Shown here: piece after piece, positions 28,401-36,228 of the stretch
How the letters are laid out: each line of letters opens with the position of its first letter
How positions within the stretch are numbered: the stretch's first letter is position 1
DNA from: Candidatus Aminicenantes bacterium
GTDB taxonomy: Bacteria > Acidobacteriota > Aminicenantia > Aminicenantales > Saccharicenantaceae
NCBI GenBank assembly: GCA_014360015.1
Contig: JACIYJ010000003.1
Coordinates: 210,733 to 274,732, forward strand
Direction of reading: 5' to 3'
DNA length: 64,000 nt
The notes under the pieces: model-generated
Told to the model about the DNA's origin: nothing
Seen by the model: only the letters and a program-made list of their open reading frames with translations
Database searches by the model: none
Translations under genes and position numbers: made by a program

Positions 28401-28767
28401 CAACCGGACAGATACCAGGTGGCTGATGATAACGAATAAAGATGGTTATGGAATAAAATTCATAGGCCAGCCGCTGTTTGAGTTTTCTGCCATTCCCTAC
28501 ACGCCGGAAGATTTAACCCTGGCTAAGCGCGGGGAAAAGCACTTTGTGGATATGCCAAGGCGGAGCAATCTTTACATGACCATAGATTTGAAGCAGATGG
28601 GTGTTGGTGGTGATGATTCCTGGGGCGCCAAACCTCACCCTCAGTACCTGATTAAACCTCAGTCTTACTCCTGGTCCTTTGTCCTCCAGCCCATCAAAAA
28701 AACGGTGACGCCCTATCCGTTTCCTGATTTCTCCACAAAAAATGGTGACGCTCTACACGTTTCCTGA
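25438..28767 (+). CDS. lacZ: GH2 beta-galactosidase (LacZ-like), secreted
   Basis: 1109 aa. Signal peptide, DWENP..NGKWKF.W N-terminus, [14 protein letters not shown] (acid/base) and [10 protein letters not shown] (nucleophile) motifs, and a C-terminal Bgal_small_N-like domain. The last ~22 codons are read from repeat-element DNA. Confidence 0.93.
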
Positions 28768-28833
28768 TTTCTGCCGGGGAAATTATGTGAAATTATAAAA
28801 ATAGTGACGCCCTACGCGTTTCCTAATAAATTT
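28696..28833 (+). repeat. Three same-orientation copies of the ~35 nt dispersed repeat
   Basis: AAAAAACGGTGACGCCCTATCCGTTTCCTGATTTC (28696), AAAAATGGTGACGCTCTACACGTTTCCTGATTTC (28737) and AAAAATAGTGACGCCCTACGCGTTTCCTAATAAATTT (28797). Confidence 0.85.
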
Positions 28834-28903
28834 GAGGAAATGCTCTTATTCGTTTCTTGATTTTTTCTTTTGCCGGGACAGCCGGCCGAATAGTTTTCTT
28901 GGG

Positions 28904-28938
28904 CAAATTGGTGACAGGCTACTCATTTCCCTATTTCC
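28904..28938 (+). repeat. Diverged copy of the dispersed repeat
   Basis: CAAATTGGTGACAGGCTACTCATTTCCCTATTTCC. A still weaker relative may lie at about 28985-29028. Confidence 0.6.
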
Positions 28939-29254
28939 TTGCTGTTTCCATGAAAACACCGCGGCTTCAAGGAAAAAAGGAAAGAAAAGCGGGACACACT
29001 CTCGCCTTCTCAATATTCCTGGCAAAAAGGCTATTAAACTCTCCTGGTCGCTTCATTTGTACCGTTATACCCATAATAAATTGCCCATTTTGAATTTCAT
29101 GAATATTAGATTTGATGTCCGGCTGAAAATATTGATATAAATAAATCTTTAATTCACTAAACCCAGGAAGAATGTTTTGAGGCGATAATAATAAGAGGAT
29201 AAAATTTTAAAACAGAAAAAGGATTTATTTTTTGGATAAAATAAGGAGACAATA

Positions 29255-31969
29255 ATGAAGACTAAAAAGATAGTCAGTGTTACGTTTCTTATATTCGTAA
29301 CATTTTTAACTTTACTTTTTCTTTCAGGGGACAACCTTAAAGCTAAAGACACAGCCGGCAAATCCGCCTCGCCGAGCAAACAGGATAAAAAATTAAATCC
29401 TGCTCAATTACCTTTTATGAACCCGGACCTTCCCCCGGAGGAAAGGGCCGCTGATGTCGTCAGCCGGCTGACGCTTGAGGAAAAAATAAGTCAGCTGATG
29501 AATGACGCTCCAGCCATAGACCGCCTGGGCATCCCAAAATACAACTGGTGGAATGAATGTCTGCATGGCGTGGCCCGCGCCGGTCTGGCCACCGTCTTCC
29601 CGCAATCGATCGGCCTGGCTGCCACCTGGGACACAGACCTTATGTTCCAGGTCGCCACAGCCATATCCGATGAAGCCCGGGCCAAGCACCATGAAGCCGT
29701 TCGCCGCGGCCAACGAGGCATCTACCAGGGGTTGACCTTCTGGTCGCCCAACATCAACCTCTTCCGTGACCCGCGCTGGGGCCGTGGCATGGAAACCTAT
29801 GGTGAAGACCCTTATCTTGCCGGCACCATGGCCGTAAGCTTCATCCGCGGGCTTCAGGGCAACCATCCCAGATATTTTAAGGTCATCGCCACGGCCAAGC
29901 ACTACGCTGTCCACAGCGGACCGGAGCCTGACCGCCACACTTTTGACGCCGTGGTTGATTTTCCCACGCTCCGCAGCAGCTATCTGCCTCACTTTGAAAT
30001 GGCTGTCCGCGAGGGCGGTGCTTACTCTGTGATGTGCGCCTACAACCGCTTCCTGGGACTTCCCTGCTGTGGCAGCCCGCTGCTTCTCTCTGACATCCTG
30101 CGCCACGAGTGGGGGTTTCAGGGCTATGTGGTTTCCGACTGCGACGCTGTTGACGACATCTACGCCACCCACAAGCTCGTCCCAACCCTGGCCGAGGCTG
30201 CTGCCATGGCTCTCAAAGCTGGCACTGACCTTAACTGCGGCCGGGCCTATTCTGCCCTGCTCGAAGCCGTAAAGAAAGGCCTGGTGGATGAAGCTACCGT
30301 CGACACGGCGGTAAAAAGGCTTTTTGTGGCCCGTTTTCGCCTCGGGATGTTTGACCCGCAAGAGCGTGTTCCCTATGCCAGCATTCCTTATTCAGTGGTT
30401 GATTCTCCTGCTCACCGCGGCCTTGCTCTGGAAGCCGCCAGAAAATCCATAGTCCTGCTTCAAAACCGCGGTGATGTCCTTCCCCTGCCCAAATCCATCA
30501 AAACCTTAGCCGTCATCGGTCCCAACGCCGACGACGTGGAAGTCCTGCTCGGTAACTATAACGGATTCCCGGCCGAACCCATTACGCCGCTCCGGGGCCT
30601 CCGCCAAAAGCTCGGCTCTGGGACCGAAATAATTTACGAGCCAGGAACCGACTGGGCGGAAGGAATTCCGGTGCTGACAGTCATCCCTTCGGAATTCCTC
30701 AAGCCCGCTCCTGACTCGTCTGAAAACGGCCTTAAAGCTGAATATTTCAGCAACCAGGAATTTAAAGGGAAGCCAGTAACCACCAGAATAGACCCGGCCG
30801 TTGACTTCAACTGGTGGGAAGAAGCGCCACTCCCTTCACTCGACCCCGACAATTTCAGCATCCGCTGGACCGGCTGGCTCTTCCCGCCAGAAACCGGTGA
30901 TTACTACATCGGAGGTGAAGGTTTTAACACTTTCAGAATTTTTCTCGATGGCCAGCTCATGGCCGCCTACAACGGCACCCACGAAACGCATAAAGCTTAC
31001 AAAAAAGTCCATCTGGAAAAAGGAAAGCCTGCGGCTCTGAAGATTGAATTCAGCCATCGGGCCCGCACTGCCCGCATGCACCTTCTCTGGAAAAAGCCGG
31101 CACCTGACGCCCTGGAGCGAGCCATCGCTTCGGCCCGGCGAGCTGAAGCTGTGGTCCTTTTCCTCGGGCTTTCCCCGCGTCTTGAAGGCGAAGAAATGGA
31201 TGTGCCGGTCAAAGGCTTCAAAGGTGGCGACCGCCTGACACTTAACCTACCCGAAAATCAGGAGAGGCTTCTCCAAGAAGTGGCCAGAGCCGCTGACGGC
31301 AAGCCGGTAGTGCTGGTTCTTTTAAACGGCAGTCCACTTTCTATCAACCGGGCGGTTGAGCTGGTGCCGGCCATTGTGGAAGCCTGGTATCCCGGTCAGG
31401 CTGCCGGGCAGGCCATTGCTGATGTGCTTTTCGGTGATTACAATCCAGCCGGACGTTTGCCCGTGACTTTTTATAAATCCGCCGACGACCTGCCAGCGTT
31501 TACCGACTACCGAATGGAAGGTCGCACCTACCGTTACTTTAAGAAGGAGCCGCTCTTTCCGTTTGGTTACGGCCTGAGTTATACCCGCTTCCGCTACTCC
31601 GGACTCACCGTGCCCAAAACCATCAAGCCCGGCGAAGAACTGACCATTTCTGTTGAGGTGAAAAACACAGGCCCGCGTGATGGCGAAGAAGTAGTCCAGG
31701 TTTATCTCAGCCGGCCCGATTCTAAATCGCCGGTCAACCCGATTCGCTGGCTGGCAGCTTACCGCCGCATCTTCCTTCGCACCGGCGAAAAACAGAAAGT
31801 CACTCTAACCATACGCCCGCGAGAAATGATGACTTACGATGGCAACGGCCAGCCCATCATAGAACCTGGCCCGCTGGTGGTTTCAGTTGGTGGTCAGCAG
31901 CCCGGCTTCACCGGCCGCCTCTCCTCCCCAACCACTTCCGTCCTGATCACCAAGGCAACAATAAAATAA
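29255..31969 (+). CDS. bglX: GH3 beta-glucosidase/beta-xylosidase with inserted PA14 domain, secreted
   Basis: 904 aa. Signal peptide, GH3 motifs (NWWNECLHG, KHYA.H, GYVVSDC with the Asp nucleophile), a PA14-like insert (GLKAEYF..W.G.L.PPETGDY) and a C-terminal Fn3-like domain. Confidence 0.9.
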   Translation: MKTKKIVSVTFLIFVTFLTLLFLSGDNLKAKDTAGKSASPSKQDKKLNPAQLPFMNPDLPPEERAADVVSRLTLEEKISQLMNDAPAIDRLGIPKYNWWNECLHGVARAGLATVFPQSIGLAATWDTDLMFQVATAISDEARAKHHEAVRRGQRGIYQGLTFWSPNINLFRDPRWGRGMETYGEDPYLAGTMAVSFIRGLQGNHPRYFKVIATAKHYAVHSGPEPDRHTFDAVVDFPTLRSSYLPHFEMAVREGGAYSVMCAYNRFLGLPCCGSPLLLSDILRHEWGFQGYVVSDCDAVDDIYATHKLVPTLAEAAAMALKAGTDLNCGRAYSALLEAVKKGLVDEATVDTAVKRLFVARFRLGMFDPQERVPYASIPYSVVDSPAHRGLALEAARKSIVLLQNRGDVLPLPKSIKTLAVIGPNADDVEVLLGNYNGFPAEPITPLRGLRQKLGSGTEIIYEPGTDWAEGIPVLTVIPSEFLKPAPDSSENGLKAEYFSNQEFKGKPVTTRIDPAVDFNWWEEAPLPSLDPDNFSIRWTGWLFPPETGDYYIGGEGFNTFRIFLDGQLMAAYNGTHETHKAYKKVHLEKGKPAALKIEFSHRARTARMHLLWKKPAPDALERAIASARRAEAVVLFLGLSPRLEGEEMDVPVKGFKGGDRLTLNLPENQERLLQEVARAADGKPVVLVLLNGSPLSINRAVELVPAIVEAWYPGQAAGQAIADVLFGDYNPAGRLPVTFYKSADDLPAFTDYRMEGRTYRYFKKEPLFPFGYGLSYTRFRYSGLTVPKTIKPGEELTISVEVKNTGPRDGEEVVQVYLSRPDSKSPVNPIRWLAAYRRIFLRTGEKQKVTLTIRPREMMTYDGNGQPIIEPGPLVVSVGGQQPGFTGRLSSPTTSVLITKATIK

Positions 31970-32001
31970 AACAGTGACGCCCTACACGTTTCCTAATTTT
32001 C
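31968..32001 (+). repeat. Dispersed-repeat copy starting inside the GH3 stop codon
   Basis: AAAACAGTGACGCCCTACACGTTTCCTAATTTTC. Confidence 0.85.
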
Positions 32002-35723: not shown

Positions 35724-35837
35724 TTTGCCTCCCCTTTAGTGTAATCTCAGTTTAATTTTACTTAATTTAAACTAAAAAAGAAAATTCATAAATTCATACG
35801 TATTTCCAACTCCCCGGTTTAATAAAACGCAGCGGGT

Positions 35838-35872
35838 AAAAAGCGAAGCACAATACTCATACCCTAATTTCC
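35838..35872 (+). repeat. Degenerate dispersed-repeat copy
   Basis: AAAAAGCGAAGCACAATACTCATACCCTAATTTCC. Confidence 0.5.
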
Positions 35873-35961
35873 ACATTAAAATGGAAGCAAAGAACTGCAG
35901 TGTTCTGCCTGGTGTGATTTTATCTATTATCTACCACTACCATAAAATTTGGGGAATGAGT

Positions 35962-36043
35962 ATAGGAAAAACGGGGGACGTCCTACATATTTCCTAATTT
36001 TGATAGGAAAAACGGGGGACGTCCTACATATTTCCTAATTTTG
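35962..36043 (+). repeat. Perfect 41 bp tandem duplication, each unit containing one dispersed-repeat copy
   Basis: ATAGGAAAAACGGGGGACGTCCTACATATTTCCTAATTTTG at 35962-36002 is repeated exactly at 36003-36043. Confidence 0.9.
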
Positions 36044-36151
36044 AGGCGGAAATAAATAAAAAAGACCGGCCTAGGTTATAGAAAAGATTAAAAATAGCGA
36101 TAAAAACTGGAGAGCCTGGGTTCATTCCGGAAAAAGGCACGTTTAATAAGA

Positions 36152-36228
36152 GAAAATGTGGTGACGCTCTACATGTTTCCCTATTATACAGGGGAAAATT
36201 AGGAAACGCGTAGGGCGTCACCATTTTC
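36152..36228. repeat. Two dispersed-repeat copies in inverted orientation (potential ~30 bp-arm hairpin/cruciform)
   Basis: GAAAATGTGGTGACGCTCTACATGTTTCCCTATTAT (plus orientation), a ~6 nt spacer, then GAAAATTAGGAAACGCGTAGGGCGTCACCATTTTC, which is the reverse complement of the repeat. Confidence 0.85.

Follow-up and report, generated by a model that had tools for sequence, protein, structure and literature searches.

In a 64,000-nt stretch of the genome of a Candidatus Aminicenantes bacterium (hereafter the window; positions 210733-274732 of contig C23 in a 2.72-Mb metagenome-assembled genome, MAG, of 30 contigs, each denoted C plus a number), a 35-nt repeat forms a dense cluster between genes. 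We propose, with a probability of about 0.85, that these units represent scattered copies of the terminal repeats of an HUH tyrosine (Y1) transposase resembling the RAYTs, the transposases associated with repetitive extragenic palindromes (REPs), and thus belong to a REPtron or TIRtron (TIR, terminal inverted repeat) of the order Aminicenantales. We established the family and its anatomy, its link to a Y1 gene, its co-variation with the lineage of the enzyme, its presence and absence at individual sites in relatives, and the stop-codon anchoring, polarity and clustering of its copies. A REP-like element was one of the options raised in a preliminary description of this DNA, and the inverted repeat copies that we found around an intact Y1/HUH gene support it.

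A degenerate 24-nt core pattern of the repeat gave 9 matches in the window, whereas dinucleotide shuffles predicted 0.00, and a repeat finder recovered the 35-nt family on both strands. We built an nhmmer profile, seeded with the 16 copies listed in the preliminary description and then refined on the genome's own matches. The profile found 14 solid copies in the window (E<0.01) and two to three weak ones, all between 28.7 and 36.2 kb, so that the dense family of about 35 nt was borne out. Fourteen of the listed copies stood, but those at 34253 and 35838 proved to be marginal remnants (the first model gave E 0.0012 and 0.0078, and refinement weakened or removed these matches). The rest of the window held zero further copies by nhmmer, and a weak look-alike suspected near 63185 did not match the profile. 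Alignment of the genome copies defined an ungapped unit of 35 nt, AAAAMNGGKGACGYCCTACRYRTTTCCTRATTTTT, with sharp boundaries and random flanking columns, and its consensus reads AAAA-M-N-GG-K-GAC-G-Y-CC-TAC-R-Y-R-TTTCC-T-R-A-TTTT(T). The two sequence variants described before, with the cores GGTGACGCC and GGGGGACGTC, are real, and a third, older type, GGGGGACACAATAC, was also found. At the position of a GGGGWSAS motif, the two main subtypes of the genome read GGGGACGT and GGTGACGC. The copies are heterogeneous, and the commonest 27-mer occurs just 8 times.

Searching the genome with the Pfam model Y1_Tnp (PF01797) gave two matches. The first, at C25:59363-59689, lies in an intact HUH/Y1 open reading frame (ORF) of 226 aa, of the RAYT or TIRYT (TIR-associated tyrosine transposase) type, which occupies C25:59321-60001 at the centre of the densest repeat zone. 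Copies of the repeat stand upstream of this gene at 59071, 59121 and 59237 on the plus strand, and downstream at 60307, 60357, 60772 and 60822 on the minus strand. The gene is therefore bracketed by inverted head-to-tail doublets of about 85 nt with a 15-nt spacer, one upstream and two downstream, including 59071-59155 (plus) and 60307-60391 (minus). The second match, at C26:39040-39528, lies where the second-densest zone has its inner edge; it is a 5'-truncated paralogue that shares 65% identity with the intact gene. A search for a RAYT transposase had been recommended in the preliminary description, and it was positive: the intact Y1/HUH gene is flanked by inverted copies of the same repeat. 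The commonest 16-mers in the flanks of the gene occur 14 and 19 times, and these counts are low because the family is large but heterogeneous. No hidden transposase remnant was detected in the window cluster by tblastn, which at E<=1 returned the two known loci and an insignificant match on C12.

The protein encoded on C25 scored 46 bits against Pfam Y1_Tnp (cut-off 23), and Pfam gave no other domain. Its sole NCBIfam match was REP_Tyr_transpos (NF047646), at 61.5 bits, and its sole sequence match in the PDB was the E. coli TnpA-REP protein (4ER8). An AlphaFold model (pLDDT 87) also had 4ER8 as its best Foldseek match, with an E-value of 6.9e-9 and a TM-score of 0.74 on the target, and the enzymes of IS608, IS200 and ISDra2 scored behind it (about 1e-4; IS608 and IS200 6e-5 or weaker). 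The HUH motif (N59-H60-x-H62, within NHFHL) and the tyrosine motif Y119-x-E-R-N-P (Y-V-E-R-N-P) were invariant in 23 homologues. A tyrosine motif of the form Y---NP is the signature of class 2, the RAYT class (PMC6006769). The enzyme carries a conserved helical C-terminal extension of about 85 residues, in which Pfam assigns no helix-turn-helix (HTH) domain. The gene adjoins mnmA (C25:57498-59057), which encodes a tRNA 2-thiouridylase of 519 aa; this MnmA has a low-complexity insert of about 120 residues, rich in Ser, Pro and Gly, between its N-terminal ATP-binding motif and the remaining HUP domain.

The profile search found 119 copies in the genome (nhmmer E<0.01), and an independent covariance model, R1, found 126. 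The 119 copies form 75 loci on 9 contigs, of which 45 hold a single copy, 20 a doublet and 10 a group of three to four. Confinement of the repeat to a glycan/peptide-utilization region, as described before, thus holds inside the window but not genome-wide, where most of the roughly 120 copies lie on other contigs. Thirteen copies overlap ORF calls, some of them in two short ORFs of doubtful status (61 and 92 aa) and the others at the 3' ends of ORFs, and none of the 119 lies deep inside any long gene. Neighbouring copies form 35 direct pairs, with a modal gap of 15 nt, 9 tail-to-tail pairs and 0 head-to-head pairs. We also observed 5' half-copies (AAAACGGGGGACGTCCTA, 18-26 nt) directly before full copies, for example at C25:57026-57085, in the flank of C27:137396 and at C26:14080-14139. 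They resemble abortive or slipped duplications of the 5' part, and no such 3' half-copies were seen among the loci.

Copy density is uneven. The first 120 kb of C25, around the intact transposase gene, hold 51 copies, and the first 42 kb of C26 hold 18, in a zone that ends at the truncated transposase gene; these two zones together account for 58% of the copies. The other zones are the window, with 14 copies in 7.5 kb, and C27:99-178 kb, with 12. C1 and C12 (870 kb) carry 5 copies, and the profile search found no copy on C28, C29, C30 and C4 (512 kb together). This clustering suggests that the enzyme is active chiefly in the neighbourhood of the gene that encodes it. An exact-overlap analysis of contig ends did not link the repeat-rich ends of C25 and C26, and linked other contigs instead. 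A CRISPR-like array was considered as the source of the repeat and rejected on the irregular spacing, the degenerate units and the dispersal over 75 loci. The real array of the genome has a different repeat: C30:95726-109135 is a large CRISPR-like array with 151 exact copies of GTTTCAATCCTTGTTTTACTGGAA... at a period of 72-74 nt, and it holds the most frequent 16-mers of the genome.

Searches of related genomes (each denoted G plus a number) with model R1 showed that the family belongs to the order. It was found in 26 of 26 Candidatus Saccharicenans genomes, at 9 to 126 copies with the present genome the richest, and in 16 of 19 other genomes of the order Aminicenantales; 41 genomes from other orders of the class gave no match. 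Homologues of the enzyme, 54-67% identical, occur in 23 of the 26 genus genomes, at one to a few each. All 15 homologous loci that we examined in other genus genomes have at least one family match beside the gene, which is clear (E<0.001) in 14. The enzymes that are 54-67% identical are flanked mostly by the GGGGGACACAATACTC subtype, and this older subtype survives in the window as the degenerate copies at 34168 and 34556. Around two metagenomic orthologues, which share 84-87% identity with our enzyme, the copies are of the GGGGGACGTCCTACGCG subtype found in the present genome. The repeat subtype therefore tracks the enzyme lineage. The two close orthologues also share TauE and MnmA neighbours with the C25 gene, which fits vertical inheritance.

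These comparisons bear on whether host processes, for instance replication slippage, gene conversion or recombination between copies, dispersed the repeats, with the Y1 gene being just another site at which they accumulated. Tandem arrays, the 5' half-copies before full copies and an identical adjacent pair do resemble slippage or duplication, and the heterogeneity of the copies also agrees with such an origin. However, slippage cannot seed distant loci, and the family occupies 75 of them on 9 contigs. The Y1 association at 15 of 15 loci in other genomes, the co-variation of subtype with enzyme and the strict conservation of the catalytic motifs are likewise difficult to reconcile with host processes, and we regard this explanation as very improbable.

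Comparison of individual sites with relatives showed how the copies come and go. In G004 and G017, which at about 80% DNA identity are the two closest relatives, the stop codon of the glycoside hydrolase family 2 (GH2) gene lies about 27 nt before the start of the GH3 gene, and the two genes look like one operon. In the present genome the GH2-GH3 spacer (28768-29254) is 487 nt, and the locus carries 4 copies. The GH2 orthologues end in PIK or PVK just before the position of copy 1, and this stop has been lost here. The GH2 ORF (25438-28767) crosses copy 1 (GGTGACGCC type, 28698..28732, plus, 37.6 bits, E 3e-9), which lies inside its 3' end, using the only stop-free frame of the unit. It ends at the internal TGA (28765-28767) of copy 2 (28738..28772, plus, 43.8 bits), which is the present GH2 stop. 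As a result, 28696..28767 on the plus strand encodes a C-terminal extension of 23 extra residues by comparison with nine orthologues; the Pfam domain Bgal_small_N ends at residue 1083 of 1109. Copy 3 (28797..28831, plus, 34.2 bits) has a degenerate 3' tail, and copy 4 (28904..28938, plus, 22.8 bits, E 1.5e-4) is degenerate. The pile-up of repeats may have split the GH2-GH3 transcription unit. A sigma-70-like site (29177-29205) precedes GH3. At the stops of GH3 and of the M61 peptidase gene, diverged copies are present at the same positions in G017, and more distant relatives have none there. From these site comparisons it follows that copies are gained, persist for long and decay in place.

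The position of the copies relative to genes is far from random. Thirty of the 119 copies start at -4 to +10 nt relative to a stop codon whose gene runs in the same direction, whereas 300 random placements in intergenic DNA gave a chance expectation of 2.8 co-oriented cases and a maximum of 10. Only 1 copy is placed at a stop in the opposite orientation, and 0 of the 119 abut a start codon. The orientation bias at gene ends that was noticed earlier is thus real and strong, at 30 co-oriented copies versus 1 opposite. The stops of the anchored copies are TAA in 23 cases, TGA in 5 and TAG in 2, and most share the A-run of the unit with the stop. In eight further ORFs the reading frame enters a copy and terminates there, at the T-R-A of positions 28-30 or at the TGA of positions 9-11. 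An anchored copy is present at 37 of the 75 loci, and more copies stack behind it at a spacing of 35-50 nt. The same habit was seen in other genomes, where 109 copies at 29 loci in more than 15 genomes gave 50 co-oriented cases versus 3 opposite.

In the window, the genes named in the preliminary description were identified correctly: a GH2 beta-galactosidase, a GH3 enzyme with a PA14 domain, an M61 peptidase and an NHL/DUF5128 propeller protein. The statement that each has a copy at or just after its stop in the sense orientation held for three of them. The copy at the GH3 stop (31967..32001, plus, 37.9 bits) has the GH3 TAA as its first three bases (distance -3). The copy at the M61 stop (32408..32442, minus, 43.9 bits) overlaps, with its 5' A-run, the TAA of this minus-strand gene (distance -2). 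The copy after the propeller gene (34556..34590, minus, 31.0 bits), which is of the older subtype, lies +8 nt from the TAG in sense orientation. GH2 is different, in that it reads through copy 1 and stops in copy 2.

Polarity follows the gene. The convergent GH3 and M61 genes carry oppositely oriented copies, and C25 has 30 copies on the plus and 25 on the minus strand. An orientation linked to replication was rejected, as the contigs showed no strand bias and the repeat-rich zones no switch in GC skew. Two of the three frames of the unit contain stops, and unrelated proteins end in near-identical tails encoded by the repeat, namely KNGDALRVS, KNGDILHIS, KKGDALHIS and KTGDALRVS. Tails of the pattern K-N/K/T-G-D-A/I-L-R/H-V/I-S were seen in GH2 and in seven genes outside the window, and the genes with repeat-encoded tails include C25:7479-8273, C25:78633-80585, C27:134150-135043 and C27:159136-160230.

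The genes with a copy at their stop encode a glycosyltransferase of family 2 (GT2), aspartate carbamoyltransferase (pyrB), MnmA, an M3 peptidase, a ferritin, a prepilin peptidase, an ACR3/SBF transporter, MscS, an aminotransferase and a secretin. This list bears on the suggestion that a DNA-binding regulator uses the units as operators of a glycan/peptide-utilization regulon, in which arrays of 40-50 bp period would serve as cooperative sites. Arrays with a regular period of 35-50 nt do lie upstream of some genes, and the window cluster sits among GH2, GH3, M61 and S9 peptidase genes. Nevertheless, the flanked genes differ widely in function (pyrB, mnmA, ferritin, prepilin peptidase, MscS, aminotransferase, secretin, GT2), copies occur in convergent spacers, where a promoter is not needed, and orthologous loci in relatives lack copies. 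In addition, the distance to the downstream start is unconstrained (40 to >1000 nt), whereas the distance to the upstream stop is fixed. The distribution effectively refutes the operator reading, to which we give almost no credence, and the link to glycan and peptide utilization drawn in the preliminary description is not supported. The window cluster is an outlying hotspot without a specific tie to glycan use. A promoter was also rejected: by eye, the unit fits neither sigma-70 (-35/-10 spacing only 14-15) nor extracytoplasmic function (ECF) sigma factors (GGAAC..CGTC spacing 8) nor sigma-54, and the copies in convergent spacers and the absence of a fixed distance to start codons also argue against it.

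Anchoring would also be accounted for, though we think it unlikely, by selection for a role at the 3' ends of genes. The units would then be, additionally or primarily, functional 3'-end RNA elements such as weak terminators, exonuclease blocks, or signals that stall ribosomes or modulate translation. For E. coli REPs lying <=15 nt from a stop codon, ribosome stalling or modulation of translation has been reported (Liang et al. 2015, as cited in PMC5581495). The 30:1 sense bias at stop codons agrees with such a role, as do the T-run at the end of every unit and the enrichment of loci in convergent spacers (25% of loci versus 14% of intergenic length). The same gene ends keep their copies in G017 despite about 20% coding divergence, and the sense RNA folds slightly better than the antisense (mean -5.7 versus -4.4 kcal/mol). 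On the other hand, 23% of the loci are in divergent (promoter) spacers, and relatives lack copies at the same gene ends.

Folding tests did not favour an RNA element either. The folding energies of single units, -0.7 to -2.9 kcal/mol, do not surpass those of shuffled sequence (z -1.0 to +1.0). For the putative stem, 101 copies analysed by pair counts and mutual information gave no stem-preserving covariation; the top mutual-information pairs reflect subfamily linkage, not stem pairs. The only strong hairpin is formed by a tail-to-tail pair of copies (36150-36232, -39.5 kcal/mol, z -8.2). An intrinsic terminator scan passed 1 of 16 window copies, and the 18 terminator-like sites found, compared with 12.6 (standard deviation 3.3) in shuffles, are at most a marginal excess. 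The structural argument for a terminator made in the preliminary description was therefore not supported, and a terminator role of the units is weakly supported. A known RNA family was rejected as well, with only three sub-threshold chance matches in Rfam at E<=1. The GTAG tetranucleotide that had been taken for a REP tag proved to lie elsewhere than expected: CTAC, which is GTAG on the other strand, sits in the putative loop of the unit, and the older, ancestral subtype has ATAC (GTAT) there.

Anchoring could also be a property of the insertion reaction itself, and not of selection alone. Consensus-like copies are anchored in 24 of 56 cases versus 6 of 33 for degenerate copies, which hints at an insertion preference, not filtering alone, but is suggestive only, with second units of doublets among the low scorers. 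Carried further, this idea would make the Y1 enzyme a single-strand transposase that homes to gene ends and whose units are kept as boundary punctuation across the Aminicenantales. The enzyme would always insert the unit with the same polarity, into the non-template (sense) strand of DNA that becomes accessible at the point where translation stops but transcription goes on. It would be built to be harmless, with an A-run that completes TAA and back-up TGA or TAA stops in two frames, and over time the system might come to serve the host by marking gene boundaries. The gene-following polarity, the more frequent anchoring of consensus-like (probably younger) copies and the same habit in more than 15 other genomes are consistent with homing. 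Even so, we consider it unlikely in this full form.

Returning to the transposase as the source of the units, we envisage the following mechanism by analogy with E. coli TnpA-REP and the IS200/IS605 enzymes. The enzyme would recognize one strand of the unit as single-stranded DNA, cut it and re-join it elsewhere, and units and doublets would spread and be kept up in this way without the gene itself multiplying. The distribution of the copies suggests that landing at gene ends would be both preferred and tolerated, the latter because the unit brings its own stops in two frames and, at the 5' junction, its A-run can complete a TAA. A unit landing on the last codons of a gene would merely swap or slightly lengthen the C-terminus. 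The enzyme would work mostly near its own gene, as the distribution also suggests. A miniature inverted-repeat transposable element (MITE) of a DDE transposon was rejected, as the units have sharp ends and random flanks without direct duplication, and their A-run and T-run are complementary, not duplicated.

Several observations weigh against the assignment to a RAYT-like transposase. The score of the enzyme with REP_Tyr_transpos is below the curated cut-off of 80. The units show neither a fold better than shuffles nor covariation, and no GTAG or CGTC tag was found at the foot of the putative stem. The doublets are mostly direct (35) and not inverted (9), unlike REPINs. The window cluster, with its 14 copies in 7.5 kb, lies far from both transposase genes, so that local action is not the whole story. 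The gene calls came from a crude home-made ORF caller, and the assembly is a MAG of 30 contigs, so that a closed genome could shift the clustering statistics. Finally, transposition by any RAYT has only indirect support in the literature (PMC5581495), and here the enzyme is tied to the movement of the units by analogy.

Among known systems, the TIRtrons are the closer description than the classical REPtrons. TIRtrons consist of RAYT-like TIRYT genes flanked by long inverted repeats, often with the motif GGGGWSAS, and include moderately abundant TIR families that occur as singles, dimers and groups, with a sharply defined clade of enzymes from Acidobacteria (Di Nocera, De Gregorio & Rocco 2013, PMC3733652). 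In the present genome, likewise, a low-copy RAYT-like Y1 gene (one intact, one truncated) lies inside long inverted terminal repeats and not GTAG hairpins, and copies of the terminal repeat are scattered as singles, dimers and groups (45, 20 and 10 of 75 loci). GGGGWSAS is present as GGGGACAC in the ancestral subtype and in most relatives, although the main subtypes here have drifted from it (GGTGACGC, GGGGGACG). The published Acidobacteria clade also agrees with the placement of Aminicenantia in Acidobacteriota by GTDB. Quentin et al. (2018, PMC6006769) equated TIRYT with TnpA-Y1 subclass 2.1, for which they found no REP-like sequences and described a C-terminal HTH extension (Bac_DnaA_C, HTH_23 or HTH_28), and Bertels et al. 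(2017, PMC5581495) reported a low flanking 16-mer count of 12 for RAYT group 1. TIRYT, TnpA-Y1 subclass 2.1 and RAYT group 1 probably correspond to one another, and our enzyme may belong with them. The flanking 16-mer counts of 14-19 here are near the reported 12. By contrast, about 120 copies here, and up to more than 100 in several relatives, are high for TIRtrons and subclass 2.1, and Pfam detects no C-terminal HTH in our enzyme.

The REPtrons known from Enterobacteria and Pseudomonas (Nunvar 2010; Bertels & Rainey 2011, PMC3116915) share with the present system short extragenic repeats that flank, and are tied to, a low-copy, vertically inherited HUH/Y1 enzyme, and E. coli TnpA-REP (4ER8) is the best structural and sequence match of ours. 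As with REPs, which lie <=20 bp from upstream ORF ends and often supply the stop codon (PMC3733652), the copies favour sites just downstream of ORFs, in tandem and convergent spacers, and at times supply the stop; repeat and enzyme co-diverge in both systems. The unit length of 35 nt, the 119-126 copies and their essentially extragenic location also agree with REPtrons. Clustering of REPs is exceptional and was noted only for GTAG-23 of T. roseum (PMC3733652), whereas the copies here are strongly clustered and not chromosome-wide. The repeat that defines REPtrons is a palindrome tagged with GTAG, and it usually forms inverted doublets. The present units differ in that they are not stable palindromes alone and have no GTAG at the stem foot, and when paired they mostly follow each other head-to-tail across a 15-nt spacer and do not form inverted REPINs.

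The mycobacterial interspersed repetitive units (MIRUs) lie within operons, where the small ORFs that they contain couple translation. No transposase is known to be associated with them. MIRUs of Mycobacterium are intergenic repeats of 40-100 bp, often in tandem, whose ends overlap flanking stop (and start) codons (Supply et al. 1997). The present repeats resemble them in being intergenic, often tandem and overlapping with stop codons, but only the stop side is anchored here, with 0 copies abutting a start codon.

The remaining units of the window are as follows. A half-copy at 32228-32252 adds to those listed before. The copy at 34168..34202 (plus, 26.5 bits) is of the older GGGGGACACAATAC subtype, and degenerate copies lie at 34208..34242 (plus, 19.6 bits, E 0.0015) and 34389..34423 (minus, 24.2 bits). 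The two doubtful remnants are at 34253..34290 (plus, E 0.0012 before and 2.4 after refinement of the model) and 35838..35872 (plus, E 0.0078, first model only). A tandem pair with a 41-nt period consists of two 100% identical copies of the GGGGGACGTCC type, at 35968..36002 (plus, 41.8 bits) and 36009..36043 (plus, 42.0 bits). The tail-to-tail inverted pair has its left arm at 36154..36188 (plus, 28.5 bits) and its right arm at 36194..36228 (minus, 44.8 bits). A second, unrelated repeat of about 130 nt lies at 32045-32173, between the GH3 and M61 stops. Its other copy in the genome, at C23:80653-80783, is 79% identical, and both adjoin clusters of the 35-nt repeat; more copies occur in the relatives G002, G041, G001 and G022, and the ~130-nt repeat has no Rfam match.

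We regard this family as a new case of a known kind of selfish or domesticated DNA, marked by strong anchoring at stop codons and by clustering at transposase genes. The repeats are neither a signal of a glycan regulon nor a new RNA motif, and a tempting misreading is thereby removed. For annotation, the family should be masked in Aminicenantes genomes, and C-terminal tails like K-N-G-D-A-L-R-V-S, which are repeat-encoded, should be distrusted. What RAYTs do has been debated for a long time (PMC5581495), and to this question the present finding adds one case and not the answer. The TIR-associated branch of RAYTs is poorly understood, and published surveys found few or no amplified repeats for it; the Aminicenantales provide a well-populated REP/RAYT case outside the Proteobacteria, with about 120 copies, occurrence in every genome of the genus and presence across the order. 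The orientation bias at stops, the head-to-tail doublets and the pile-up at transposase genes make it a good natural data set, suited to the question of whether RAYT-type enzymes choose their targets by the state of transcription and translation, or act preferentially in cis.

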